DNA of 64,000 nt from Thermoproteota archaeon (GTDB lineage: Archaea > Korarchaeota > JAOZGF01 > JAOZFZ01), in assembly GCA_027492035.1 (NCBI GenBank), contig JAOZFT010000004.1, positions 113,929-177,928 on the forward strand, in the 5' to 3' direction. The position numbers were made by a program, and so were the translations under genes. How positions within the stretch are numbered: the first letter of the stretch is position 1; every line of letters begins with the position of its first letter. The notes under the pieces are model-generated. The model had not been told where the DNA came from, did no database searches, and was given only the letters and a program-made list of their open reading frames with translations. Shown in pieces: positions 7,533 through 57,721 of this stretch.

Positions 7533-8669
7533 ATGAAGCTTAAACTTTATAAGGAGGGAAAAGTTTTCTTCTTTGCTTCCCAAGGAGAACTTAATTCCTC
7601 CGCACCTGTTTTCTATAACCCGAAAATGAAACAGAATAGAGATTTCACAATATTAGTGGGAGCATGGCTTAGGAAAGAAAAGAAAAAAGGAATAAATTAT
7701 TTAGAGCCATTATCAGCTTCTGGAGTTAGAGGGTTAAGGTTTGCAAAAGAAATTGAGGCCTCTAAAGTAATTATTTCAGACAAGAAAAAGACAGCTTACC
7801 AAGTAATGCAGACGAACATCAAAATAAATGAGTTGGAAAGTAAAGTAACTCCTTTCAATTTGAAGGCAATTACCTTAATGGAAATACTTAAAGAAATGAT
7901 GTTCTGGTTTGATTTAGTTGACATAGACCCTTTTGGTTCACCAATCTACTTTGTTGAAGCTGCCTCAGCTATTCTTAAAAGGAGAGGAGTACTAGCGGTT
8001 ACAGCTACGGATTTAGCCACTTTACAAGGTGTTAAACCTGAAACATGTTTTAGAAGATACGGAGTAATGCCTTATAGAACAGATTATTCTAAAGAACTTG
8101 GTCTGAGAGTATTAATAAGTTCAGTAATTTTACGAGTCTCTCCCTCTGAAATATTTCTGGAACCTATTCTGTCCTTTGCAGGTAAGCATTACTACAGAAT
8201 TTTCTTTCAAGAGGTGAAAGGTTTCAATTATAAGAGATGGGGTTACAATCTCTACTGCAAAAGTTGCTTATGGAGAGGAACAACCTCAATTGAAGAGAGT
8301 CACTACCATAAATGCCCCAATTGTGGAGGGAATATAAAGGTTATAGGGCCATTATGGTTAGGCCCTCTGGTATCGTGCAACTTAATTGAAAAATTAAAAG
8401 AAATGCTTAGAAATTTTCGATATATAGAAGATAGAGAGAACCAAAAGTTGCTTAGTTTGTTAAGTCAAGAATGTTCAGCCCCTCCTTTCTATTTCGATCT
8501 TCATTCTTTTTCGTCTAGAATAAGAGTCTCTCCACCAAACATCGAAGAAACAATGCTTAGGGTTAAAGAGCTAGGTTACTCAGCCTACAGAACCCATTTC
8601 TCCTCCACTGCAATAAAATCAAACATTGGCGCAAAGGACTTGACTGAATTGTTACGAAGGAGGAATTAA
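7533..8669 (+). CDS. trm1: tRNA (guanine(26)-N2)-dimethyltransferase
   Basis: VDIDPFGSPIYFVEAA motif and C-terminal Cys cluster (CKSCLW...CPNCGG) typical of archaeal Trm1. Confidence 0.8.
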   Translation: MKLKLYKEGKVFFFASQGELNSSAPVFYNPKMKQNRDFTILVGAWLRKEKKKGINYLEPLSASGVRGLRFAKEIEASKVIISDKKKTAYQVMQTNIKINELESKVTPFNLKAITLMEILKEMMFWFDLVDIDPFGSPIYFVEAASAILKRRGVLAVTATDLATLQGVKPETCFRRYGVMPYRTDYSKELGLRVLISSVILRVSPSEIFLEPILSFAGKHYYRIFFQEVKGFNYKRWGYNLYCKSCLWRGTTSIEESHYHKCPNCGGNIKVIGPLWLGPLVSCNLIEKLKEMLRNFRYIEDRENQKLLSLLSQECSAPPFYFDLHSFSSRIRVSPPNIEETMLRVKELGYSAYRTHFSSTAIKSNIGAKDLTELLRRRN

Positions 8670-9043: not shown

Positions 9044-9137
9044 TCACCTTTGAAAAAATTTTCCCAAGAAAAAATTCAGCCAACAAACACCAATAAAAAT
9101 TGTATTTGCTACAATATAAAAATATTAGGTTTAAAAA

Positions 9138-9341
9138 CTATGAATTTGATGATTGAACCAAAACGTACGGTTGAGAAACAGGGCCCAGTACATCTACCAC
9201 TTTGCCTTTTAGGGTTTTCTCCCCCTTAACTGTTACTTTACTGAAGAGCTTGGGTACTTGGGAATGTTTTTTTAACTTGATAAGAAATTTACTTGGTTCA
9301 ATTTCTGTCACAATTTCACCTTCAATAATTATGCTTTTCAT
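9138..9341 (-). CDS. gar1: H/ACA ribonucleoprotein complex subunit Gar1
   Basis: GKVVDVLGPVSQPYVLV motif characteristic of Gar1; 67 aa. Confidence 0.8.
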   Translation of the reverse strand: MKSIIIEGEIVTEIEPSKFLIKLKKHSQVPKLFSKVTVKGEKTLKGKVVDVLGPVSQPYVLVQSSNS

Positions 9342-9355
9342 TGCAAAAAACTTCC

Positions 9356-9643
9356 TCAGCCCTGCTTTACTAGTTTTTCCCCTATCAACTTAAGGATGTA
9401 GGTCTTACTCTGAACTTTTTTGACTTTTAATCTTCCTTTCTCGGTGAACCAAGTTCTTGGGTGTCTTTTATTTTCTTCCAAGATAGGGTTTAGGTTTAAC
9501 CTTTGAGCTATTTGGAAGAGTTTTTGGGGGTCAGGGTTTCTAACTGACAATTTTTTCGGCACTTTTCTCCCTTTTTTCCTCGATTTCTTAGTATCAAAGT
9601 ATAGGGGGTAAATGATGATGTATTTTCCCTTCTCCTCCTTCAT
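9356..9643 (-). CDS. srp19: Signal recognition particle protein SRP19
   Basis: IIIYPLYFDTKKSRKKGRKVPK matches the SRP19 N-terminal signature. Confidence 0.8.
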   Translation of the reverse strand: MKEEKGKYIIIYPLYFDTKKSRKKGRKVPKKLSVRNPDPQKLFQIAQRLNLNPILEENKRHPRTWFTEKGRLKVKKVQSKTYILKLIGEKLVKQG

Positions 9644-10032
9644 TCTTCTTCAACTTTGACCGCGTTTATAACTCCGTTTTGGCCTGGTCGGCTTGTCACT
9701 CTTACCAAGCCCAAAGGAGTTGAGAGAATGGCTCCTTTAGTGATTACTTTCCTTCTTGTATAGATTTTGTTTGCAGGGTTTTCGATTAAGTCTTGTATCT
9801 TTGTTTTCTGTGTTTTCTTTGTTTTTGGGTCATAGACGTTCACTACCTCGTCTCTTAAAAGTTTAAATTTCACTTGCCCCCTTTTCCCCTTTACTTTTTT
9901 AAGTTTTCTTTCCCCTATTTTAGTTTGGGTTGGATAAGACCCTATTAAGGCTTTCTTTTTCGTTTTTCTATGCCTTATAAACTTCTTCCCAGTTTTCGTC
10001 CTTCCTTTCACTTCACCATGATACACAGACAT
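9640..10032 (-). CDS. rps8e: Ribosomal protein S8e
   Basis: Basic 130-aa protein; N-terminal GRTKTGKKFIRHRK and C-terminal TSRPGQNGVINAV match S8e. Confidence 0.85.
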   Translation of the reverse strand: MSVYHGEVKGRTKTGKKFIRHRKTKKKALIGSYPTQTKIGERKLKKVKGKRGQVKFKLLRDEVVNVYDPKTKKTQKTKIQDLIENPANKIYTRRKVITKGAILSTPLGLVRVTSRPGQNGVINAVKVEEE

Positions 10033-27105: not shown

Positions 27106-28134
27106 CTAAAACCATTTCTCTAAACCGGTAACTGCGAAGTACTTATTGTAAGATTCAACTAGCCTGTTTAAGGCTTTCTGGACACGTGAAAGTGAAAAGT
27201 CGTGTTTTCTACAGAGGAACTCAATTATTTCTTCAGTTTGAGGCTTCTCCCAACTTATTTTGTAGTTGTCTGTGACTAATGGTTTTTGGAAAACTTCCAT
27301 TATTTCCTGTAAGTTCTCAGGAGGCTTCTCCCCCTTCTCCTCATAAATTTTGTTTAAGTCCCCACCGTATTTTTTAAGTAATTTAACTGCTGTCTTTGCA
27401 CCACAACCTTTAAGCCCCTTATTAAAGTCTGTCCCGACCAATATCCCACATAGGATTAGTTCATTTAATGTTAAACTGTTTTTATCAATTAATTCATCTA
27501 GAAAAATTATTTCAGGCTGAATTTGAATATATTGTTTTTTCCCCGGCAGTTTACGTCTGCCACTTATCGTTAAATTTCTTACAAGTCGGGGTGCACCGAA
27601 GAGTAAGGCGTCATAATCCTGTGAAGCTACAGCCCAGCAATCGCCTTTCTTTGCCATGTATGCTGCTTGTGCTTCGCCTTCTTGTGGTGATTTTATATAA
27701 GGGATGCCCATGTACCCCAAAAGGGTACATGCACCTTCTACTAACTCGTCTGTGAGTCTTGATGATGCTTGAGCATATTTACGGGCCAGTTCTAGGTCGC
27801 CTATTTCTAACGCCCTTTTCCACAATGTTTCAGCTGATTCTCGACTTTCTTTCCTTCTTTCAAGCTCTTTCTTCTTAAGTTTAGGTGGAACGCCGTCGAA
27901 GACATAGATTGGTTTTATTCCGTTCTCATACAGGTTGATTGTCCTATAGAATAAACCAGAAAGGTGGCTAGTTACTTTTCCTGTGTGATCCTTTAAGGGG
28001 GTTCCGTCAGGTTGCCTTATAATGGCTAGAAATTGGTAAAGAGTATTTGCTGAATCTATACATATTTTTTTGCCGTTTAAATCCCCAAAAGATATAGGTT
28101 TAGGATGTGTTATTCCCCTTAATTTAACCCCCAT
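27106..28134 (-). CDS. fen: Flap endonuclease 1
   Basis: N-terminal MGVKLRG...ICIDSANTLYQFL and IYVFDG motifs of FEN-1/XPG; start at the MGV Met. Confidence 0.9.
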   Translation of the reverse strand: MGVKLRGITHPKPISFGDLNGKKICIDSANTLYQFLAIIRQPDGTPLKDHTGKVTSHLSGLFYRTINLYENGIKPIYVFDGVPPKLKKKELERRKESRESAETLWKRALEIGDLELARKYAQASSRLTDELVEGACTLLGYMGIPYIKSPQEGEAQAAYMAKKGDCWAVASQDYDALLFGAPRLVRNLTISGRRKLPGKKQYIQIQPEIIFLDELIDKNSLTLNELILCGILVGTDFNKGLKGCGAKTAVKLLKKYGGDLNKIYEEKGEKPPENLQEIMEVFQKPLVTDNYKISWEKPQTEEIIEFLCRKHDFSLSRVQKALNRLVESYNKYFAVTGLEKWF

Positions 28135-28171
28135 TTCTTTAGTTTTCACCCTCCTAATAAAAATAAGCTTA

Positions 28172-38347: not shown

Positions 38348-39328
38348 TTATTCAGCATCTCTAACACCTTCCTCAGTGATTTTAAAAAGTGTTTCTGAGG
38401 AGGGGAGGATGGGGCTGTCAACTATCTTTGCAGCCCTTAAATTTTCTTTTCTTTTAGTTAAGAAGACCCTGGTGGTTACGGTATGTGCAACAATATTTCC
38501 GCCGGCAGGTATTAAGGGATTACCGTAAAAAACGTCGGGTCTAGCGATTACTTGGTTTGTTACAACTACTGCACAATCATAGATATCGCTTAATCTTAAA
38601 AGGTCATGAAGGTGCTTATTAAGTTTCTGTTGCCTTTTCACTAGGCTTTCTCTTCCAGGGAATTCACTCCTGAAATGGGAAACTATTGAGTCAATAATGA
38701 CTAGTTTTATGTTTGAAGAGGTTATGACTTCATCCAGATTTTTAACTAAGAAAAGCTGGTGATCTGTGCTGTAGGCCCTGCCATATATTATATTGGACAA
38801 GGTCTTCTCTGGGTCTAAGTTTAGACTGAGAGCCATTTGTTCGATTCTTTCGGGTCTAAAAGTGCCTTCTGTGTCAATATACACTGCTCCAGCGTTTAAG
38901 CCACCCTTGTCTTGCGGTAGTTGAACAGTGACTGAAAGTTGATGACAAATCTGAGTTTTGCCTGTAGCATATTCTCCAAAGAATTCGGTAATGCCCCTAG
39001 TTTCTATACCCCCTCCTAAAATGTTGTCTAAGTTACTGGAACCAGTGGTTATCTTATAAATTACCCTTCTTTTATCTAGAAGCTCTTTTGCAGTCATAAA
39101 TTGTATTTTCAAAAGAGATTGTGCAGCTTTTATTATTTTTCTCGCTGTTGATTCACCTATTTCCACAGATGCAGCTAGTTCAGCTGCTGTGGCAACAGCT
39201 ATTGATTCAATAGTGGAAAAACCACTTTCCCTAAGTTTATTAGCGATAGCAGGGCCAACTCCCTTTATTTTTTCGATTTCAGAACTTATATTCTCCTCTT
39301 CTTCCTCCAATTTAACCAAGCACCTCAA
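38348..39328 (-). CDS. radA: DNA repair and recombination protein RadA
   Basis: N-terminal HhH region, Walker A GEYATGKTQICHQLSV, Walker B LVIIDSIVSHFR; 326 aa. Confidence 0.95.
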   Translation of the reverse strand: MRCLVKLEEEEENISSEIEKIKGVGPAIANKLRESGFSTIESIAVATAAELAASVEIGESTARKIIKAAQSLLKIQFMTAKELLDKRRVIYKITTGSSNLDNILGGGIETRGITEFFGEYATGKTQICHQLSVTVQLPQDKGGLNAGAVYIDTEGTFRPERIEQMALSLNLDPEKTLSNIIYGRAYSTDHQLFLVKNLDEVITSSNIKLVIIDSIVSHFRSEFPGRESLVKRQQKLNKHLHDLLRLSDIYDCAVVVTNQVIARPDVFYGNPLIPAGGNIVAHTVTTRVFLTKRKENLRAAKIVDSPILPSSETLFKITEEGVRDAE

Positions 39329-40466
39329 TTCTTCTTCTATTTATTTGTTCAACTATGTCAGGGTTTATTCTGTACATTCTTCCCTTTCTATGGATAATAT
39401 CCATATCCGCCAGTTCCTCTATTCGGAAAAATTCTTTCTCTAGAGGGATACCCATAACTACTGCTGCTTGTTCCAATGTGAATTGTTCATTTTGGAAAGT
39501 GTTAAAGAGGAGTCTAAGTTCCCTTTTAAGCGTGTAGGGCAAGTCCCCCAATTCTTCTATAGGCTCTTCCAGGTAAAGGAATGCGTTAAAAATTTCTTCA
39601 GTGACTTTTACTATCCTCTTCCTCAAAGCTATTTCTATACATAAATTAAGAACCCTCATCAGTTCTAAAGGTATCCCTTTCGAGAAATTGTTTGCCCTCT
39701 CTATTATTTCCTCATTAAAAGGGAACAATGCATCCCCTGTAGGGTGGATACGAAGTCTAGCTAACCTTTTCTGCGTAAAGGCCAGTGCTTCATCAACGTT
39801 GAATGGATTTACCTCCATAAATGTGTGAATTCTGGAAGTAAAGGCTGAATAATCTCTCTCAAGCAGCTCATATGCTTGGGGGGTAACTGCTAAAACAAAT
39901 AAAACTCCTTCAGGCATGCTGCTCACTAAATGCCTTAACATTTCTATTAAATAAAACCTCCACTCAGCTGAAGAGAAATATATGTTTTGCAAGTCATCTA
40001 TGAGGATGGCAGCTGGGAAATTCGTTTTAAAAGAATTGATTACTATTTCAGCTGCGTCTGTAGGGGATAAGCTACCGTCACTTAGCCCTTCAACCTTTGC
40101 ATAAATTGGAAACCCTAATTTCCTCTTTAGTCTGGAAACAAAACTTTTTTCAGCGTTTATAGATTCAATTAATACTTTCCTTATTAAGTTACTTACTACA
40201 CCAGGTTCCGCTTTATTAAATGAACAAAAGGCCTCCCTTACAGTGAAGAAGTTCCTAATTCTCATTAACCTGGTGGTTTTCCCGAATCCTTTCTCCCCAA
40301 TTAAAAGGATTAAACCTGACCCTTCCATAGCGGCAGATTCGTTTACTATTTCATCTAAGACATAATCCCCTCTAGTCTTGACAAAAACCGATTCTACATC
40401 AGGAAACCAAAGTTCACTTATTTCTTCAAATGGGTTCCCTTTTAAATTAAGATCAGCTAGTGACAT
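39312..40466 (-). CDS. AAA+ ATPase with C-terminal winged-helix-like region (archaeal ATPase family)
   Basis: Walker A LLIGEKGFGKTT, Walker B-like AILIDDLQ; overlaps the radA start by 17 nt on the same strand. Confidence 0.45.
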   Translation of the reverse strand: MSLADLNLKGNPFEEISELWFPDVESVFVKTRGDYVLDEIVNESAAMEGSGLILLIGEKGFGKTTRLMRIRNFFTVREAFCSFNKAEPGVVSNLIRKVLIESINAEKSFVSRLKRKLGFPIYAKVEGLSDGSLSPTDAAEIVINSFKTNFPAAILIDDLQNIYFSSAEWRFYLIEMLRHLVSSMPEGVLFVLAVTPQAYELLERDYSAFTSRIHTFMEVNPFNVDEALAFTQKRLARLRIHPTGDALFPFNEEIIERANNFSKGIPLELMRVLNLCIEIALRKRIVKVTEEIFNAFLYLEEPIEELGDLPYTLKRELRLLFNTFQNEQFTLEQAAVVMGIPLEKEFFRIEELADMDIIHRKGRMYRINPDIVEQINRRRIEVLG

Positions 40467-40737
40467 AGTTTTTTGAACCTCGAATCTCTTTTTAATATTT
40501 AGAGTGAGGGTTTACAGGTTTGAAAACATCTTCTTAAACCCTTTAAGATTTAAAAAGGAGTTCCAATTTTTTAAAAGGAGGGAAGGAGTAAATTACTCTT
40601 TACTTAAGTTTAAGATTTTTAAAAATTAAAGTCTTTCCTTTAACTTGAAAAACGAACAAAGAAAGGAAAAGTTAAAGAAAAGAATCTTTAAAAATAAAAT
40701 TCTCATTTCCAAGTGAAACTTCAGGTGAAAATTTATA

Positions 40738-40944
40738 ATGAAACCGAATTTTAGAAAGAGAAGCAATGCAGTTGTAATATCAGTTTCCATGCCTTTAAAA
40801 TATGTGAAAGCCATAGACGCTTTAGTAAACGAAAAAATTTATTATTCAAGAAGTGATTTAGTGAGGGATGCTTTAAGGAATTTCTTTATTTCTAAATTTC
40901 CTGATTTGCTTGGGAAACAGGAAAAAACTTTTCCAGAAGAGTAA
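40738..40944 (+). CDS. Ribbon-helix-helix (CopG-like) DNA-binding protein
   Basis: VISVSMPLKYVKAIDALVNEKIYYSRSDLVRDALRNF matches the RHH beta-strand/helix pattern. Confidence 0.5.
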   Translation: MKPNFRKRSNAVVISVSMPLKYVKAIDALVNEKIYYSRSDLVRDALRNFFISKFPDLLGKQEKTFPEE

Positions 40945-46119: not shown

Positions 46120-46395
46120 TCAGCCGTTGTCCCTCTCCATTTCTTGCAAAAATTTAACGAAAAGAGAAACCTCGCCTCTTTTAAGATTTAAACAGTACTT
46201 ACGGGGACGGTAAGGGAAAGTTTTGAGCCATTTCACCTCCTCAAGGTCTTTCAAGTACTTTCCTAAAGTTTTTGAGTCAATACCTAAACTTTTTCTAATT
46301 TGGTACTTGGTGTAAAGTAGTGAAGGATTTTTAGCGAGGAAACGAATAAGTTGAACTTTTCGGTAACTTCCTAACACTTTCTTAATTTTATCCAT
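46120..46395 (-). CDS. Small winged-helix transcription regulator
   Basis: 91 aa, HTH-like pattern; divergent from orc1/cdc6. Confidence 0.4.
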   Translation of the reverse strand: MDKIKKVLGSYRKVQLIRFLAKNPSLLYTKYQIRKSLGIDSKTLGKYLKDLEEVKWLKTFPYRPRKYCLNLKRGEVSLFVKFLQEMERDNG

Positions 46396-46563
46396 GAATA
46401 TGAACCTGAAGTTTTGTAGTATTTATTTCTTTTGAACGATTAGAGTTAGAGAAATAACCAGCAAAGAACTTAGAACAATTATTTACCCCCCCTCCCCCAA
46501 AAAAACAACCCCACAATATAAAAAGTTGATAAAATGAAGAAATTTCAAGGAGGGGGTTGAGAC

Positions 46564-47751
46564 ATGGGAAGCAATTTTTTAACTTTAAAGGGGTGGCATT
46601 CACCCATTTTCAGGGATGAAACAAAACTTTACTTAGAGTATGTCCCTAAAGATCTTCCTCACCGAGAGGATACAATGAAAAAACTAACCTATTTATTTTG
46701 GCCAATTATTTCCTCTACTGGAAATTTTTCAGCTAGTGCCTGGATACATGGGGCTGTAGGAACAGGTAAAACCGCTGTTTCTAAGAAGTTTGGATTTCTC
46801 TTTGAGAAAATCAGTAAACAGAAATCATTTCTTTTAAAGTATATTCACATAAATTGTAAACAGAAAAGAACAGGCTCTAATGTGATTTTATCCATCTTGG
46901 ATAATTTAAACGTGACAGTGCCTTCTAGAGGACTTTCTTTTCAAGAATTAGCCTCAATACTTAAAAAAATTCTGTTCAAGAAGAAAAGATATATCCTTTT
47001 AGTTTTGGATGAGGCAGGTTATCTTTTGAAAAAGGAAGGATCCGACATTATTTACAGCCTTGCACGGCTAACAGAGGAAGAATTTAATCAGAGGCCTTTA
47101 TTCTCATTTATTTTTACCTCTAAACAAGGTAGAGATGCCTTTCTTCTAGATCAAAGTACAAGAAGTTCACTTGCACCAACTAAAATTCATTTACCAAAAT
47201 ACAATAAGAATGAGTTAAAAGATATACTAACTCTAAGAACTGAGGAAGCTTTAAGAAAGGGAGTGATAAAGGAGGAAGTAATAGATTTAATAGCAGAAAT
47301 TGCTTCTTCAAAAGGAGATGCTCGATATGCCATAGAGCTCTTGTGGAAAGCTGGTAAAGAAGCTGAAATGGAGGATTCAAAAGAAATACTTCCCTCTCAT
47401 GTCCACAAAGTTAATTTATCTATTATGGAACCTAGACAATATGAGGAGATAAATAACTTGCCGAGACATGAAAAGATGGTTTTGTTAGCGATCATAAAAG
47501 AAAATCTGAGTGGAGAGAGGAAATATGCAAGGATTAAAAGGATAGTGGAGAGGTACAGGGGCATTTGTAGAAAATATGGTGAAGAACCTAGGTCCTATAC
47601 TAGGGTTTGGCAATTCATAAAGGATTTACAGCACGCAGGGTTAATAGAAGTTAATAGGTTAAGTGAAGGTGAAAGAGGAACCTTAAAGATAAGGGTTACC
47701 CATGAAGAACTAAACAGTTTGGAGGGAGTAATAAAGGGGCAACTTTGCTAA
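46564..47751 (+). CDS. cdc6: Orc1/Cdc6 replication initiator
   Basis: Walker A GAVGTGKTAV, Walker B LLVLDEAGYL, C-terminal winged helix; 395 aa. Confidence 0.9.
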   Translation: MGSNFLTLKGWHSPIFRDETKLYLEYVPKDLPHREDTMKKLTYLFWPIISSTGNFSASAWIHGAVGTGKTAVSKKFGFLFEKISKQKSFLLKYIHINCKQKRTGSNVILSILDNLNVTVPSRGLSFQELASILKKILFKKKRYILLVLDEAGYLLKKEGSDIIYSLARLTEEEFNQRPLFSFIFTSKQGRDAFLLDQSTRSSLAPTKIHLPKYNKNELKDILTLRTEEALRKGVIKEEVIDLIAEIASSKGDARYAIELLWKAGKEAEMEDSKEILPSHVHKVNLSIMEPRQYEEINNLPRHEKMVLLAIIKENLSGERKYARIKRIVERYRGICRKYGEEPRSYTRVWQFIKDLQHAGLIEVNRLSEGERGTLKIRVTHEELNSLEGVIKGQLC

Positions 47752-48062
47752 AATCTACGGAGAGGTGTTTTCTAGTGCCTACTCTCCCACAAAAAATTAG
47801 TTTAGAGGAGGTATTCTCAACAAAGGCCCGAGTACGAATTATTAAATTGCTTATTTCAGAGGGAGAGATGAACATTACCCAGTTAACTAGAAAAACATGT
47901 TTAAATCACAAAATAGTTTCTTCAAACATTAAAGTTCTGTCAGAGAAAGGAATAATCTCTACAGAAAAAATAGGAAGAATTAGAACTTGCAAAATAAATA
48001 AATCAAACCCAAGAGCTAAATTATTAGCTAAATTTATTTCAGAATGGCAAAAAAGGCTATGA
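47745..48062 (+). CDS. Winged-helix (ArsR-like) transcription regulator
   Basis: EEVFSTKARVRIIKLLISEGEMNITQLTRKTCLNHKIVSSNIKVLSEKGII; overlaps the cdc6 stop. Confidence 0.5.
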   Translation: MLKSTERCFLVPTLPQKISLEEVFSTKARVRIIKLLISEGEMNITQLTRKTCLNHKIVSSNIKVLSEKGIISTEKIGRIRTCKINKSNPRAKLLAKFISEWQKRL

Positions 48063-49259: not shown

Positions 49260-50222
49260 TCACACAGCACCGAAAAGGGAAAATTTAGCTAGAAGAGCAC
49301 TTAGCTGGACATCTGGATGTGCTCCTTCACTTAACCTAAAGTCAACTTCACCTACGTAGTCTAGTAAGGCCGTCTTTCTTTCTTCTTCTATATCCATGTT
49401 AAGAATTTCTCTATGAACTTGTTGCAAAATGTCAGAAGCAGAAACTCCATACCTTGTCATCAAATTGTAAAGGGTATCACGTGCCTCCTTGAATTTACCT
49501 TCTAAAGAGAGAGTCAACATTTTCCTTATTTCAGCAGGGTGAGCCCTGCCAGCTACCTTAAAGACTATTTCTTCAGTAATCTCTTCATTAAGAGCTGCAG
49601 AGGTTTGTAATAAATTTATTGCCCTCCTTAGGTCGCCTTCAGTGATGTAAACTATTGCATCAAGCCCCTTTCCAGAAATCGAAACCTTCTCCTTCTCAGC
49701 AATATAGAGGAGTCTTTCTTTAATCTTCTCTTCACTGATTCTTTGAAACCTGAAAATAGCACATCGTGACTGTATAGGTTCAATTATTTTAGAAGAGTAA
49801 TTACAAATTAATATGAATCTGCAATTGTGTGAAAAAATCTCCATTGTTCGCCTTAATGCCTGTTGAGCATCGCTGGTTAAATTATCAGCTTCATCTAGAC
49901 AAATTATTTTATAGGGGAACTCTCCTATTGGAGATGTTCTTGCAAAATCCTTAACTCTGGTTCTAATTGTCTCTATACCCCTTTCATCTGATGCATTCAA
50001 CTCAATAAAGTTGGATCTAAAACTCCCTGGACCGAACAATTCTTTAGCTAAACAAATCGCAGCAGTAGTTTTTCCGGTTCCTGGAGGACCTGCAAATAAC
50101 ATATGAGGAATTGATTTAGTAGCTACGAACCTTTTTAACCTTTCAACTGTCTCCTCTTGGTCAGTAATTTCTTTTAAAGTCTGAGGCCTATATTTCTCGG
50201 TCCAGATGCCATTAGCGCTCAT
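49260..50222 (-). CDS. rfcS: Replication factor C, small subunit
   Basis: WTEKYRP, GPPGTGKT, CLDEAD, SRC motifs; start taken at the Met preceding WTEKYRP (ORF track starts 27 nt upstream). Confidence 0.9.
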   Translation of the reverse strand: MSANGIWTEKYRPQTLKEITDQEETVERLKRFVATKSIPHMLFAGPPGTGKTTAAICLAKELFGPGSFRSNFIELNASDERGIETIRTRVKDFARTSPIGEFPYKIICLDEADNLTSDAQQALRRTMEIFSHNCRFILICNYSSKIIEPIQSRCAIFRFQRISEEKIKERLLYIAEKEKVSISGKGLDAIVYITEGDLRRAINLLQTSAALNEEITEEIVFKVAGRAHPAEIRKMLTLSLEGKFKEARDTLYNLMTRYGVSASDILQQVHREILNMDIEEERKTALLDYVGEVDFRLSEGAHPDVQLSALLAKFSLFGAV

Positions 50223-50331
50223 CAAAACAACCTCTAAACCCTGAACCAAAAATTTAAAATACCTTTCAAAAACAATGAACTACTATATTTATTTAATGCC
50301 CCTTATAAAAAATAAATGCTCAGCTATAACA

Positions 50332-50363
50332 AAAAAGTTTTCTTCTTAAGAGAAGAAAACTTT
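50332..50363. promoter_or_regulatory. Perfect inverted repeat (14-bp arms, 4-nt centre) in the rfcS / GINS-mcm divergent intergenic region
   Basis: AAAAGTTTTCTTCT-TAAG-AGAAGAAAACTTTT; followed by tandem AGAAAACAG AGAAAACAG at 50370-50387. Confidence 0.5.
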
Positions 50364-50407
50364 TCACGGCAGAAAACAGAGAAAACAGAAGAAAAAGCAA
50401 GAGGGAT

Positions 50408-50947
50408 ATGGAAGGAGAAGAGTGGGAGTTGGAAACAAAAACTAAGAAAAGAATAAAGAATCAATATAATCTCTTAAATGATGCCCGAGTAAAATCAAAA
50501 AGGGGCTTCTACCTACTGAATGAGGAAGGAAACAAGGAAGAAATTAAAAAAGATGAAATTATTAATGTACCGGTTTGGCAAGCTGAATTCTTGATAAGGG
50601 AAAACCTTGCAGAACCCATATATGAGAAAATAAATAATGAAACCTTAATGAGGATTCTTTCACTTGAGCAACTGAATACGTTTTCGTTGTATGAATTACC
50701 AAAAGATTTTTACCTTAACTGCCTACATACATTGGAACAATTAAAAAAGAGTAAGGATAAAGCAGCAAATGACTTCCTGAACCGACTAGAAAACTTAATA
50801 ACGCTTAGGTTACAGAAGATACTTAAGATGGCGGCTAAGAACTTAGAAAAAAGAAAAGAAAGGGAAAAGATGACAGCTGAGGAAGAACTGCTGTATGATT
50901 GGGTAAGGAAATTAGTAAATGATTGGGTTAAATCATTAATAGTTTAA
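50408..50947 (+). CDS. GINS subunit (Gins23-like), putative
   Basis: 179-aa helical protein directly upstream of and co-oriented with mcm, as in the Sulfolobus gins23-mcm pair; assignment by position and size only. Confidence 0.4.
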   Translation: MEGEEWELETKTKKRIKNQYNLLNDARVKSKRGFYLLNEEGNKEEIKKDEIINVPVWQAEFLIRENLAEPIYEKINNETLMRILSLEQLNTFSLYELPKDFYLNCLHTLEQLKKSKDKAANDFLNRLENLITLRLQKILKMAAKNLEKRKEREKMTAEEELLYDWVRKLVNDWVKSLIV

Positions 50948-50964: not shown

Positions 50965-53046
50965 ATGGAATTGCAACAGCTAAAAATATCACAAGAAACT
51001 TTAATCAAGACATTCCAAGATTTTCTGCTTAGCTTTCAAAGTGGAGGCAGAAAAGGATATTATGAACAACTTAAAGGTTTACCTGAAACAGGAGGAATTT
51101 CGATAAACGTTAATTACAGCGATGTTTTAATGTACAACCCAGAAATAGCGAATACTTTATTAGAGAAACCAGAAAAAATAATTAAGTCAGCATCTGAAGC
51201 ACTTAAAAGAACAATCTCCCAAATAGACCCTGAATATGCTAGATATAAGAAAAGATTTTACGTGAGGTTTCATAATTTACCCTATAAATCAGCTATAAGA
51301 GATCTACGTGCAAGTCAGATAGGGAAACTAGTGGAAATAGAGGGAGTGGTAACGCAGGCCTCAGCAATTCAAGCCCAGATGATAACAGCAACATATGAAT
51401 GTAGGAGTTGCTCCTCTATTTTTGAGGTTCCAATAGATGAAGATAACCCAAGTTTCCAAAAAAGTGTTTTAATTTGCCCAAATTGTGGAAGAAAAGGCCT
51501 ACACAAGCTACAGCTGGAAAACTGTACTTTCATGGACTGGCAAAGTATAAGGCTGCAGGAGGACCATGAAAACCTTCCTCCAGGTAGGTTACCTCGATCA
51601 ATATTATGTATTCTAAAGGAAGATTTAGCTGATAAAGTTAGGCCGGGGGACCATGTGCAACTTGTAGGTATACTAAAACCTATAAGGTTAATCCGCAAAG
51701 GGGAAGTAAGTAAGCTAAATTATTCCATTTATTTAGAGGGAAACTATGTAAAAGCATTAGGTGAAGAAGTAGAGACTGAGGAATTAAGTGAAGAAGACAT
51801 TGAAAAGATAAAATCTTTAGCAAAAGACCCAAATATAGCAGAAAGAATAGTAAACTCCATTTCTCCTTCGATATATGGCTTAAGCGAAGTTAAAAAAGCA
51901 ATAACTTTACTGCTTTTTGGTGGAAACCCAAAACATTTAGAAGGAGGAGGAAAAATAAGAGGGGATCTAAACATATTGTTAGTAGGTGATCCTGGAACTG
52001 GCAAAAGCCAAATATTAAAAAATGTAGCGAGAGTAGCACCAAGAGGATTATACACTACGGGTAAAGGATCTACAGCTGCAGGGTTAACGGCAGCTGTAGT
52101 TAAGGATTCATTGACAGGGAATTGGAGTCTGGAAGCAGGGGCTTTAGTTTTAGCTGATAAAGGAGTTGCATGTATAGATGAGTTTGATAAAATGAGCAAC
52201 AATGACAGAGTTGCAATTCATGAGGCTATGGAACAACAAACTATTTCGATAGCAAAGGCAGGCATAGTTGCGACTTTAAACGCTAGAACATCAATATTAG
52301 CGGCAGCCAATCCTGCTTGGGGCAGGTATGATGAAGATAGAAGCCCAGCTGAGAACATAAATTTGCCAGTTACGATACTGTCAAGATTTGATTTGATATT
52401 TCTAATTAAAGATGCGCCTGAGGCTCCAAAGGATAAAAATGTAGCCGAATTCATCCTTAAACTTCACGCTGGCAGAGGGGAAAATAATCAAGACTTGATA
52501 GAGCCTGTTCTCCTGAAAAAGTATATCCTTTACGCAAGAAAAAACATAAAGCCCCGTTTGACAAGGCAAGCTTTAGGAAGAATAAAACAGTTTTATTTAA
52601 AATTAAGGAAGGAAAGCGAAGAAAAACAAGTGATTGCGATAACGCCTAGGCAATTAGAGGCAGTAATTAGAATGAGTGAAGCAAGGGCGAAAATGGAACT
52701 TAGAAAACAAGTAAAAGAAACAGATGCTGAATTCGCAATCAATTTAATGGAAGAGTTCCTTAACCAAATAGGCTACGAAAGGAAAGAGGGTGCATACGAT
52801 ATAGATAGAGTAATCACAGGAGTGTCCTTCTCAAAAAGAAAAAGAATATTAGCCCTTGAATCTTTAATAAAGGAACTTTATGAAGACAATGGAAAAAGGC
52901 CTGTTGAAATATCAACCGTTATAGATACTTTTAAAGAGAAACATGGAATACAGGAGACATTAATAAGGGAAGATCTTGCCAGACTAAAGAAGGAGGGAAG
53001 AGTACTCTTTCCAAAAGAGGGATATGTGATACCTCTCGGATCCTAA
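50965..53046 (+). CDS. mcm: MCM replicative helicase
   Basis: Zn finger CRSC...CPNCG, Walker A GDPGTGKSQ, Walker B CIDEFDKM, arginine finger SRFDL; 693 aa, no intein. Confidence 0.95.
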   Translation: MELQQLKISQETLIKTFQDFLLSFQSGGRKGYYEQLKGLPETGGISINVNYSDVLMYNPEIANTLLEKPEKIIKSASEALKRTISQIDPEYARYKKRFYVRFHNLPYKSAIRDLRASQIGKLVEIEGVVTQASAIQAQMITATYECRSCSSIFEVPIDEDNPSFQKSVLICPNCGRKGLHKLQLENCTFMDWQSIRLQEDHENLPPGRLPRSILCILKEDLADKVRPGDHVQLVGILKPIRLIRKGEVSKLNYSIYLEGNYVKALGEEVETEELSEEDIEKIKSLAKDPNIAERIVNSISPSIYGLSEVKKAITLLLFGGNPKHLEGGGKIRGDLNILLVGDPGTGKSQILKNVARVAPRGLYTTGKGSTAAGLTAAVVKDSLTGNWSLEAGALVLADKGVACIDEFDKMSNNDRVAIHEAMEQQTISIAKAGIVATLNARTSILAAANPAWGRYDEDRSPAENINLPVTILSRFDLIFLIKDAPEAPKDKNVAEFILKLHAGRGENNQDLIEPVLLKKYILYARKNIKPRLTRQALGRIKQFYLKLRKESEEKQVIAITPRQLEAVIRMSEARAKMELRKQVKETDAEFAINLMEEFLNQIGYERKEGAYDIDRVITGVSFSKRKRILALESLIKELYEDNGKRPVEISTVIDTFKEKHGIQETLIREDLARLKKEGRVLFPKEGYVIPLGS

Positions 53047-53051
53047 GGTGT

Positions 53052-55625
53052 GTAAAGATAAAGGAACCTAATCTCCCGGAAAAAGTTGCACAAGCAGCTG
53101 CGAAATTAGGCATAAGGGCCCTTTTCCCGCCTCAAATAAGAGCTATAAAGAAGGGAATTCTAAAGGGTAAAAATTTCGTCATAGCTACACCTACAGCTAG
53201 TGGAAAAACATTTATAGCATTAGCTGCGATAATAACCAAGTTAAATAAACACAGTGATAAAGCTATTTATTTAGCACCTCTACGGAGTATAGCATCGGAA
53301 AAATACAGTGAATTCAAAGAATTATTTGATGAATTAGGGTTAAGGACGGCTATTTCCACCGGTGACTTCGATCTTTCACCCGACTGGTTGAAAGGATATA
53401 ACATAATTATTTCCACGAATGAAAAAATTGACTCAATCATTAGACACAACCCAAAGTGGTTACAAGACGTAAAGGTAGTTGTAGTGGATGAAGTGCACCT
53501 TATTGACAGTTTGAAACGTGGCCCAATAATCGAACTCTTAATCGCTAAACTAAGGAAGAAAATAGAAAACCCACAAATTTTGTGCTTAAGTGCAACAATT
53601 AAAAATGTGAAAGAACTAGCGGAATGGATTAATGGAACATATATAAGCAGCAACTGGAGACCCGTAGAACTCAGGGAGGGAGTATTTTATGATTACAAAA
53701 TCTATTGGAGCAATGGAACAAAAAACGTAAGGAAAATTAAGGGGGAGAAATACACAGACCTCTGTCTAGATACATTAAAGGAGAAAGGGCAGGTACTTGT
53801 TTTTTTAAACACCAGAAAAAACGCAGAAAACACCGCAGAAAAAGTAAAGAACGCTATTTCCAACACTCTTACTGAAGAAGAGAAAAAGGAACTTAAAAAA
53901 ACAGCTAGAAGGATTATTTCAGAAGGAGAACAAACTAAACTTTCGAAAAAACTAGCTAACCTAATAATGAGTGGAGTTGCATATCATCACGCAGGTTTAA
54001 GGCATATTCATCGTGCAATAGTAGAGGAAGCATTCAGAAGTAATTTTCTAAAAGTTATTTGTGCAACCCCCACCTTAGCTGCAGGAGTTAACCTCCCAGC
54101 TAGGAGGGTAATAATAGGGCAAATTCATAGATTTTCAAAGGGAAAAGGAAGTCAACCTATTTCTGTAATGGAGTACAAACAAATGTGTCTGCCGTATGAC
54201 ACGCTGATCTTAACAGAAGAAGGGGAGATAGAGATAGGGGAGATAGTTGAAAAGAGAACTCCAAAAAAAGTTGTCAGTTTAGATCTTGAAACCGGTAAAG
54301 TAACCTTGAGCAAGATATTATCCTTTTTTGAAAGGAAAACTAATTTTTTGGTTAAACTCTTTTTAACTACTGGCTTAAACCTAGAACTGACACCTAACCA
54401 TCCATTGCTGGCAGTTAAAAACGGAAGGTACGGATGGTTACTTGCAAAAAGAATACGGAGAGGCGATGTTGTATTTACGTTAGATAAAGGGCTAATGAGA
54501 AAGATAAAAGTGAAAAAGGTAAAAAGAATAAACTTAGATAGCCCGATCACTGTCTTCAATTTGAAAACAGAAAAGGAAACCTTTTTTGCGGAAAGAATTG
54601 TATTGCATAATTGTGGACGGGCAGGTAGACCAAAGTATGATGAAATAGGGGAGGCGGTTCTTATAGCAAACACTGAAGAAAGAAAGGAAAAGTACTTAAA
54701 AAAGTACGTGAACTCGAAACCAGAAAAAATAAAATCGAAACTGGTTGATTCACCTGCCCTAAGAGCGCAGATTCTGTCACTAATAACTTCTAATTTGGCA
54801 TTCACTCCTGAAGATATGAGGGACATATTTAAGTTGACTTTTTATTACAGCCAAACTAAAGAGAAAAAGAAAATAGAGAGAAAGATTAAAGAAACATTAG
54901 ATTTCTTGTTACTTAACGGATTTATAAAGAAAACAGGGGACTTGCTTCATGCTACAAAGTTAGGAAAAAGGGTTTCTTTACTTTATTTAGATCCTCTTAC
55001 AGCAATAATTTTACTTAAAGGAATGGAAAAACTAGAAAAGAAGAAAGTCACTCCTCTTTCATTACTAACACTGATCTGCCTCACTCCAGACATGGAAACA
55101 CTAAGTTACCGTAAGGCATTCTATCACGAAATGAACAACTTACTTAAAGAAAGAGAGGAAGAACTACCCCTAGAAGTTTATTATACTTCAACCTATTACT
55201 TGCTCGATCAAGACTGGCTGCAAGCAATATGGACTGCAAATATGCTTGAGAAATGGATAAATGAAGAAAATGAAGACACTTTAAACTTTAAGTACGGAGT
55301 TGGCCCAGGAGACATAAGAAGAGTAAATGAAAGTGCTGATTGGCTCCTCTACTCCATGCAGGAATTAGCCAAAACGTTTAAACATGAGAATTACATTCCT
55401 TTAATTGAAGAACTAAGGCAAAGAATAAAATATGGAGTGAAGAAGGAACTAATTGAATTAACTACCATAAAGGGTATTGGAAGGGTAAGAGCCAGAGTCC
55501 TCTACAATAAGGGATACAAACGTTTAGAAGATTTGAGTAAGGCGTCTATAAATGAACTTGCTAAACTTCCAGCTATAGGCGAAGCCTTAGCAAAAAGTAT
55601 TAAAGAACAACTAAATGAGGAATAG
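53052..55625 (+). CDS. hel308: Hel308 (Hjm) Ski2-like helicase, containing a mini-intein; true start codon unresolved
   Basis: Walker A ATPTASGKT, DEVH box VVVVDEVHL, motif VI QM-CGRAGRP interrupted by intein, C-terminal HhH (IKGIGRVRARVL). Homologous N-terminus lies upstream of the ORF-track start (53388) with no ATG/GTG/TTG in frame back to the stop at 52905; 53052 is a frame-consistent placeholder. Confidence 0.8.
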   Translation, partial: VKIKEPNLPEKVAQAAAKLGIRALFPPQIRAIKKGILKGKNFVIATPTASGKTFIALAAIITKLNKHSDKAIYLAPLRSIASEKYSEFKELFDELGLRTAISTGDFDLSPDWLKGYNIIISTNEKIDSIIRHNPKWLQDVKVVVVDEVHLIDSLKRGPIIELLIAKLRKKIENPQILCLSATIKNVKELAEWINGTYISSNWRPVELREGVFYDYKIYWSNGTKNVRKIKGEKYTDLCLDTLKEKGQVLVFLNTRKNAENTAEKVKNAISNTLTEEEKKELKKTARRIISEGEQTKLSKKLANLIMSGVAYHHAGLRHIHRAIVEEAFRSNFLKVICATPTLAAGVNLPARRVIIGQIHRFSKGKGSQPISVMEYKQMCLPYDTLILTEEGEIEIGEIVEKRTPKKVVSLDLETGKVTLSKILSFFERKTNFLVKLFLTTGLNLELTPNHPLLAVKNGRYGWLLAKRIRRGDVVFTLDKGLMRKIKVKKVKRINLDSPITVFNLKTEKETFFAERIVLHNCGRAGRPKYDEIGEAVLIANTEERKEKYLKKYVNSKPEKIKSKLVDSPALRAQILSLITSNLAFTPEDMRDIFKLTFYYSQTKEKKKIERKIKETLDFLLLNGFIKKTGDLLHATKLGKRVSLLYLDPLTAIILLKGMEKLEKKKVTPLSLLTLICLTPDMETLSYRKAFYHEMNNLLKEREEELPLEVYYTSTYYLLDQDWLQAIWTANMLEKWINEENEDTLNFKYGVGPGDIRRVNESADWLLYSMQELAKTFKHENYIPLIEELRQRIKYGVKKELIELTTIKGIGRVRARVLYNKGYKRLEDLSKASINELAKLPAIGEALAKSIKEQLNEE
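54186..54611 (+). other. Mini-intein (142 aa, no homing-endonuclease domain) in Hel308 motif VI
   Basis: Begins with Cys (CLPYDTLILTEEG, block A), contains TPNHPLL (block B TxxH), ends FFAERIVLHN followed by Cys +1; flanking exteins YKQM / CGRAGRP reconstitute motif VI. Confidence 0.8.
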
Positions 55626-57521: not shown

Positions 57522-57640
57522 GGGGCCGTAGTCCAGCCAGAGGGAAGCCTAGATATGGGCTTTTCAGGCAAGGTAGGATGCCTGCCTGGGGAAATTAGCC
57601 GGAACGCAGGTGGTCCCGGGTTCAAATCCCGGCGGCCCCA
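57522..57640 (+). tRNA. tRNA-Pro(GGG) with two predicted introns (about 31 nt in the D-loop, about 13 nt in the anticodon loop); CCA encoded (to 57643)
   Basis: Acceptor GGGGCCG/CGGCCCC, D-stem GUCC/GGAU with insertion in the loop, anticodon stem CCUGC/GCAGG with loop CUGGGG + short intron, T-arm CCGGG-UUCAAAU-CCCGG, then A-CCA in the genome. Confidence 0.6.
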
Positions 57641-57721
57641 CCATTCCCAGCTTTTAAAATGTAGAGACGTAAAGAAGGGAATAAGTATTTTTTGAGTATA
57701 ACTCTTTGGAGAAAAGAAACT

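Follow-up and report, generated by a model that had tools for sequence, protein, structure and literature searches.

A promoter-proximal dyad between the clamp-loader and replicative-helicase genes of an uncultured heat-loving archaeon

A perfect palindrome of 14 + 14 bases lies between the clamp-loader and replicative-helicase genes of an uncultured heat-loving archaeon. Does it control the expression of these genes, mark a site of replication or recombination, or simply record how the DNA between them arose? A first-pass annotation of the window (the whole 64-kb stretch of DNA analyzed here) had described the inverted repeat together with a tandem 9-mer, and proposed a shared operator for a cell-cycle regulator or an origin-associated sequence. 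We find that the palindrome is real and the tandem repeat ordinary, and the feature is at most a promoter-proximal dyad.

Geometry and rarity of the inverted repeat

The flanking genes are those originally described, with RFC genes (RfcS, RfcL) on the minus strand facing away from the GINS/mcm/hel308 genes (Gins23, MCM, Hel308) on the plus strand. The intergenic region, given as 158 bp, in fact spans 185 bp (50223-50407, 29% G+C), rfcS starting at ATG 50222 and not at TTG 50249. The 320-aa product read from this ATG is identical to database protein P0006, and the same call is found in three public assemblies. Features of the locus are as follows, with TATA-model matches explained below.

46564-47751: orc1/cdc6, 2.5 kb from the palindrome, with three genes between.
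47745-48062, plus strand: ArsR/SmtB-type winged-helix (wHTH) gene directly 3' of cdc6 (NCBI call: 95 aa from 47775).
49260-50222, minus strand: rfcS, replication factor C small subunit, 320 aa.
50252-50261, no strand assigned: rfcS TATA box candidate ATTTAAAATA / TATTTTAAAT, a TATA-model match, palindromic, 30 nt from the rfcS ATG.
50310-50301, minus strand: TATA-model match.
50303-50312, plus strand: TTATAAAAAA, best gins TATA candidate by eye, below 7 bits in the TATA model.
50333-50346, no strand assigned: left arm of the palindrome, AAAAGTTTTCTTCT, found by direct reading and inverted-repeat search.
50347-50350, no strand assigned: spacer or loop TAAG, 4 nt, by direct reading.
50350-50341, minus strand: TATA-model match CTTAAGAAGA at the palindrome centre, 9.6 bits, the best minus-strand match of the region.
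50351-50364, no strand assigned: right arm of the palindrome, AGAAGAAAACTTTT, with AGAAAAC inside at 50354-50360.
50371-50388, plus strand: tandem AGAAAACAG, two copies, found by direct reading and TRF, at a frequency that is background for the genome.
50387-50395, plus strand: AGAAGAAAA, third copy of the arm core, perfectly complementary to 50338-50346.
50401-50405, plus strand: GAGGG, Shine-Dalgarno-like, 2 nt 5' of the gins ATG, by direct reading.
50408-50947, plus strand: gins23, 179 aa (Pfam Sld5 at cut-off; NCBIfam Gins23, E 2.5e-20).
50965-53046, plus strand: mcm, 693 aa.

Direct reading and repeat search both recover the palindrome in the divergent region, perfect and with 14-bp arms, at coordinates one base higher than the 50332-50363 first assigned to it. 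It is 32 bp long in total, lies 44-75 nt 5' of the gins23 start and has the half-site sequence AGAAGAAAAC. Three of the 14 stem pairs are G-C and 11 are A-T (A-U in RNA), and CTTAAG at 50345-50350 forms a small offset palindrome across the junction of arm and loop. A window-wide search returned no longer perfect inverted repeat. First-order Markov simulations of the whole window never reached 14 bp (0 of 40), and second-order simulations of all 8.3 kb of its intergenic DNA did so once in 300 (P ~0.003); scaled to the whole genome, about 0.05-0.1 such palindromes would be expected by chance. The dyad symmetry is therefore beyond chance.

The same does not hold for the tandem repeat. The 9-mer is present, one base to the right of the interval 50370-50387 initially given, and six bases separate the right arm from AGAAAACAG AGAAAACAG. 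As previously claimed, AGAAAAC also occurs inside the palindrome, and its reverse complement lies in the left arm. With three plus-strand copies (50354, 50371 and 50380) and one on the minus strand (50336-50342), these four occurrences in 50 bp are the densest cluster of the window; they are not independent, as the inverted repeat accounts for two of them and the duplication for the other two. TRF reports 37 small arrays in the window, this one included, and perfect two-copy tandems with units of 8-12 nt number four, compared with 0-7 in simulations, so that the tandem AGAAAACAG is not beyond chance. Similar AGAAAACAN tandems (AGAAAACAA/AGAAAACAC) are found inside a coding region at 9798-9825. 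The genome is purine-rich, and the tandem stands at its background level.

We searched for further copies of the motif, as the first-pass annotation had proposed to do upstream of other replication or cell-cycle genes. Within the 64 kb, no intergenic copy with up to two mismatches was found 5' of cdc6, fen1, radA or any other gene, and 11-mers of the palindrome show no meaningful recurrence in other intergenic regions of the window. The genes fen1 (27106-28149, minus strand) and radA (38348-39328, minus strand) thus lie in the window without the motif upstream, as does a gene for a 384-aa AAA_22 ATPase (39312-40466, minus strand), which radA follows. The only other exact copy of the 14-nt arm in the window (7559-7572, minus strand, with AGAAAACAG 34 nt away) falls within the coding sequence of trm1, the gene for tRNA m2,2G methyltransferase; we judge it coincidental, because the codons there encode KVFFF and PVFY. 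A hit with two mismatches at 40919 lies inside an unannotated RHH ORF described below. A metagenome scan with the 10-4-10 core returned 20 contigs, all of unrelated context and none encoding proteins of the replication gene island, and a scan of viral sequences returned zero copies.

Promoter assignments and the transcribed leader

Candidate promoters were assigned with a TATA model derived by EM from 33 upstream regions of the window, a small number of sequences, with the consensus (A/C)TTTAAAAG(A/C). Boxes resembling CTTTTAAA precede tRNA genes and many protein genes in the window. The box at 50252-50261 is likely the rfcS promoter, and MAFFT aligns it with a conserved CTTAAAAG box of Thorarchaeota; nothing on the rfcS side points to a site shared with that gene. 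For gins, the TTATAAAAAA box would predict a transcript start at ~50332, beside the left arm of the palindrome; the start stays a prediction, since the EM model gave ambiguous promoter assignments. The palindrome lies 3' of the TTATAAAAAA box and overlaps a minus-strand TATA-model match at its own centre, so that under every box assignment the dyad is predicted to fall within either the core promoter or the leader's first 35 nt.

The last match raises the question of whether the palindrome centre, CTTAAG with its flanks, might itself be a TATA box, serving a shared bidirectional core promoter or the gins promoter. Its minus-strand match CTTAAGAAGA has the best score of the region on that strand, the orthologous region of Thorarchaeota has CTTAAAAG and CTTTAT boxes, and a start ~25 nt downstream would give gins a leader of ~33 nt, like that of relatives. 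The plus-strand version nevertheless scores below 7 bits in a model built on few sequences, and the DNA 5' of the box is rich in T, unlike the A-rich, BRE-like sequence found in front of strong sites in this genome. With a shared promoter, moreover, the rfcS leader would measure ~95 nt, despite a good box 30 nt from the ATG of that gene. We regard this assignment as improbable.

Were transcription to start at ~50332, the palindrome would fold at the very 5' end of the mRNA, followed by an unstructured purine-rich leader and GAGGG. Such a hairpin could keep 5'-to-3' exonucleases off the gins-mcm-hel308 mRNA, or serve as the target of an RNA-binding protein. In E. coli, ompA provides an example of a 5'-terminal stabilizing mRNA stem-loop, and the arrangement here is alike in that a hairpin at the predicted 5' end precedes a single-stranded leader with a ribosome-binding site. 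The TATA-like box at 50303-50312 is suitably placed, ~22 nt 5' of the first arm; the hairpin is predicted to fold cleanly (-13.7 kcal/mol at 37 °C) with the leader after it wholly unpaired, and the leader stretch 50365-50407 contains a single T in 43 nt. Unlike stem-loops of the ompA type, the hairpin would be only marginally stable at the growth temperature estimated below and is not conserved, being absent from the orthologous leaders of Thorarchaeota and of a sister lineage. From the IVYWREL fraction of the proteome (0.444) we estimate a growth optimum of ~81 °C, a rough figure by which the organism is probably a hyperthermophile. With 11 of 14 pairs A-U, the predicted free energy of the hairpin falls to -3.7 kcal/mol at 70 °C and -0.8 kcal/mol at 80 °C, and as RNA it would be nearly melted at ~80 °C. 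The tRNAs of this genome carry ~60% G+C. These points weaken a role as RNA structure and favor one as DNA. The stem has zero G-U pairs, its only homologous copies are identical and so offer no covariation, no Rfam match has an E below ~1, the ribosome-binding site is not sequestered by the hairpin, and the start site is a prediction only. An RNA element is, on balance, unlikely.

As for the tRNAs themselves, ARAGORN missed two of the three that Rfam found. A further tRNA gene with an intron and encoded CCA, recognized by eye at 57523-57643 on the plus strand (GGGGCCGTAGTC...GGTTCAAATCCCGGCGGCCCCACCA), was missed by both the Rfam gathering search and ARAGORN.

A bidirectional transcription terminator, an outcome that the first-pass annotation had named as speaking against its proposal, deserves hardly any credence. 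The hairpin is flanked by short T runs on both strands, but rfcS on the minus strand and gins on the plus strand both start here and no gene ends; the stem is A+T-rich, with 3 of 14 pairs G-C, and a terminator scan makes no call.

Replication context and related genomes

The island of replication genes around the palindrome, with orc1/cdc6 2.5 kb away, and the A+T-richness of the intergenic region (29% G+C) could suggest that the locus belongs to a replication origin, in which the palindrome would be recognized by Orc1/Cdc6 or form a cruciform. Archaeal ORB and mini-ORB repeats go back to Robinson et al. 2004, as cited in PMC12680538. We required at least two such repeats, with a TCCA-N-TGGAAAC-like core that is often followed by a G-string. 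Origins of this type resemble the present locus in having repeats near orc1/cdc6 in A+T-rich intergenic DNA. They differ as follows: the ORB core has four weak matches in the window, where ten are expected, and none within 50223-50407, and the number and spacing of the repeats are wrong, there being just two arms. As these are 4 bp apart, no unwinding element is flanked by inverted boxes. A G+C content of 29% is ordinary among promoters of the window, the element shares no repeats with the cdc6 upstream region and is not conserved at syntenic loci, and cumulative GC skew over the 64 kb tracks gene orientation with no turn at 50.3 kb. Searches for ORB and other repeats around cdc6 in five lineages gave nothing convincing. 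With cdc6 lying 2.5 kb off beyond three genes, the proposed association with an origin finds no support, and we hold it to be highly improbable.

The intergenic gap next to cdc6 has features of its own. Divergent from cdc6 lies orf91 (46120-46395, minus strand), which encodes a winged-helix-like protein of 91 aa. The 168-bp gap between the two (46396-46563) contains a C-rich tract, CCCCCCCTCCCCC, and imperfect inverted repeats at 46409-46471; no ORB-like repeats were recognized in it.

The geometry can also be read as 13-6-13 or 12-8-12, like that of lox- or dif-type sites, and the element is single-copy in the 64 kb. It might thus be a site for site-specific recombination, dif- or att-like, with arms of 12-13 bp around an asymmetric centre of 6-8 bp. 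The window ORFs that were scanned contain no tyrosine recombinase, integrase or Xer domain, the viral scan was empty, a mobile-element context is absent, and synteny with relatives is unbroken on both sides. The chance that this is a recombination site appears very small.

Synteny is extensive. Replication gene clusters of this sort have been described for Asgard archaea (PMC12680538), and the order cdc6, wHTH, rfcL, rfcS, and divergently gins, mcm, hel308 is kept in at least about 25 Thorarchaeota loci and in the sister lineage; the part comprising rfcS and the divergent gins-mcm-hel308 is also kept in Nitrosopumilaceae. Relatives used for synteny came from an MCM-based contig scan and were all, among the matches listed, at most 48% identical, and no homologue of the GINS protein was found beyond its own 90% cluster. 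The sister lineage, recovered through its RfcS homologue, is the closest relative outside the species (RfcS 69%, MCM 61% and GINS 48% identical) and keeps the whole island, including the wHTH as an uncalled ORF, without the palindrome. Across ~40 orthologous rfcS-gins regions examined, no perfect inverted repeat of 12 bp or more and no AGAAAAC repeats were found. The Thorarchaeota regions have two promoter boxes that are conserved, CTTAAAAG(C/A)TTC ~45 nt from rfcS and (G/C)TCTTTAT ~40 nt from gins, and in the MAFFT alignment the palindrome and its repeats appear, relative to Thorarchaeota, as ~65 inserted nt that separate the promoter region from the gins start. Absent from ~40 orthologous regions and from the sister lineage, the element is specific to the species or genus. 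Since even the nearest relative is distant (RfcS 69% identical), turnover of an operator is possible. Three other assemblies (GCA_027491775.1, GCA_027491625.1 and GCA_027492235.1) are 99.7-99.9% identical to the window and carry an identical rfcS-gins intergenic sequence; the palindrome is thus fixed in four assemblies from different samples, which are nearly clonal and have no power to detect constraint.

This distribution bears on the possibility that the palindrome arose recently as a by-product of mutation and serves no selected function. The purine-rich gins leader would have grown by slippage, giving the AGAAAACAG duplication and the repeated AGAAGAAAA; a template switch would then have copied 14 nt of AGAAGAAAACTTTT in inverted orientation, and the resulting palindrome would have drifted to fixation. 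Several observations fit such a route. The repeat is perfect, without decay, and its 14 perfect positions per arm are more than transcription factor sites usually keep, which points to recent origin and not to long selection. The arm core recurs next door as a direct repeat, the neighboring repeats look like slippage products, similar AGAAAACAN tandems occur in coding DNA, and small tandem repeats are at background level in the window; the element is missing from the sister lineage and all other orthologous regions, it aligns as an insertion relative to Thorarchaeota, and no regulon is detectable within 64 kb. Against this, a perfect 14-bp inverted repeat is rare even at such a composition, a strong dyad or hairpin is not obviously neutral in the control region of essential genes, and the palindrome is fixed in the four assemblies, nearly clonal as they are. 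An origin as a by-product is a serious possibility, almost as likely as an operator.

Other lineages have dyads of their own in the orthologous region. In one subgroup of Thorarchaeota (L021, L022, L035, L046 and L059), a perfectly conserved GCTTCTCCGGAAGC inverted repeat adjoins the rfcS TATA box CTTAAAAG, ~48 nt from rfcS (L021 5136-5149, for example); other subgroups keep the CTTAAAAG box and not the dyad. We considered GCTTCTCCGGAAGC as a homologue of the palindrome and rejected it, as it is confined to one subgroup and does not recur elsewhere in those loci. In Nitrosopumilaceae (L063-L080), the region contains several repeats of the GATC-rich palindromes GGATCAATTGATC and AATTGATCGATCC (L070 5361-5484, for example), which are conserved across genera while their flanks vary, and which look like a real lineage-specific regulatory motif.

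A possible operator and its candidate binders

The reading that we tentatively place first is an operator: the palindrome would act as DNA, specifically in this lineage, within the promoter or leader of the gins23-mcm-hel308 operon. A DNA-binding protein, as one dimer or two, might occupy the 14-4-14 dyad; bound at or just 3' of the TATA box, it would block the recruitment or escape of RNA polymerase and so repress the helicase operon gins-mcm-hel308. Cooperative binding might reach further, onto the AGAAAAC copies that follow in the same sense after 17, 26 and 36 bp. The dyad, its statistical rarity, its placement relative to the genes and TATA-like boxes and the absence of known alternatives are observed; the start of transcription, any binding of protein and the direction of regulation are inferred. 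What places an operator first are the dyad symmetry and where it lies, the argument from temperature and the aCcr1/2/3 precedent, although the aCcr motif is absent here; the clustered AGAAAAC cores and the three small DNA-binding proteins encoded nearby also speak for it. It is, at best, an ordinary candidate regulator-binding site.

Known archaeal repressors offer a measure of this proposal. MDR1, Phr, NrpR (GGAA-N6-TTCC) and TrmBL1 (TGM) act at or 3' of the TATA box. Their operators share with the present element the dyad symmetry and a position from which polymerase recruitment would be blocked, and some have extra tandem sites; by this analogy, the position of the dyad at or just 3' of the TATA-like gins box suits an archaeal repressor site. 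Known archaeal operators generally have imperfect arms of 4-8 bp and are conserved among relatives or repeated within a regulon, whereas the arms here are perfect over 14 bp and neither conservation nor a regulon was found. In the ~40 orthologous promoter regions and the sister lineage the dyad is not conserved, and within the 64 kb it does not recur 5' of co-regulated genes. An operator is possible, but neither conservation nor recurrence speaks for it.

The nearest functional precedent comes from Saccharolobus, where the RHH repressors aCcr1/2/3 bind palindromic motifs up to 50 nt from start codons, among them the gins, orc1 and whiP starts (PMC13199686). In Sulfolobales generally, aCcr1, aCcr2 and aCcr3 act as repressors on palindromes that are, like the one here, promoter-proximal to replication and division genes (PMC13199686, PMC9976878). 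The aCcr motif, A(T/G)G(A)TA(G)A(T/G)TACN, differs from our element, and with no GTA on the plus strand of 50223-50407 the region has no GTA..TAC dyad. The aCcr sites are ~10-12 bp long and found at ~100 promoters, no further than 50 nt from the start codon; the present element measures 32 bp, occurs once in 64 kb and lies 44-75 nt upstream.

Candidate binders encoded in the window would be the ArsR-type wHTH (47745-48062), orf91 (46120-46395) and a 68-aa RHH protein (40738-40944). The RHH (CopG-type) ORF, unannotated and on the plus strand, matches Pfam RHH_1 with an E of 8.5e-7 and lies inside what looks like a 580-bp gap 5' of EF-2. It is preceded, at a distance of 55-105 nt, by an imperfect inverted repeat of 15 bp (40632-40683).

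We infer the wHTH to be a candidate regulator. Genes of this ArsR/SmtB type stand directly 3' of orc1/cdc6 here, in the sister lineage, in a third lineage (L107) and in at least about 25 Thorarchaeota; coordinates in relatives are 8202-8459 (L105), 9115-9396 (L107) and 1830-2087 (L021, Thorarchaeota). By its sequence, the cdc6-linked wHTH is a conserved initiator-linked putative DNA-binding protein. In ArsR/SmtB operators of the 12-2-12 type, one or two winged-helix dimers bind a long, A+T-rich inverted repeat. The palindrome is alike in being a long A+T-rich repeat, with a protein of this type encoded in the island, but does not resemble TGAA..TTCA-type ArsR/SmtB boxes. A link between the two is speculative, because the wHTH is conserved next to cdc6 in lineages without the palindrome, and we think it improbable that the dyad is the binding site of this protein. 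If it were, control would run directly from the initiator module (cdc6-wHTH) to the helicase module gins-mcm-hel308, making a simple replication-licensing circuit in an Asgard-like hyperthermophile, with an operator rebuilt in a lineage-specific manner.

Should the palindrome be an operator of any kind, it would offer a first handle on the control of helicase expression in an uncultured Asgard-like thermophile. Its general importance is low, as it is a feature of one species that is neither conserved nor part of a recognizable regulon. What should last longer is the finding on context: the entire replication island, its cdc6-linked ArsR-type protein included, is conserved across distant archaeal lineages, while the rfcS-gins control region turns over freely.

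The last gene of the operon shows some peculiarities. Hel308 carries an intein, and the sister lineage is without one. Directly behind the mcm stop the hel308 frame is already open, through 53049-53387 and then 53388-55625, and its first part encodes an otherwise missing N-terminal portion of the helicase, including the Walker A motif ATPTASGKTF. The public call (713 aa) is N-terminally truncated. The frame contains no ATG, GTG or TTG before 53388, which suggests a non-canonical start codon or an unusual coupling of hel308 to mcm.
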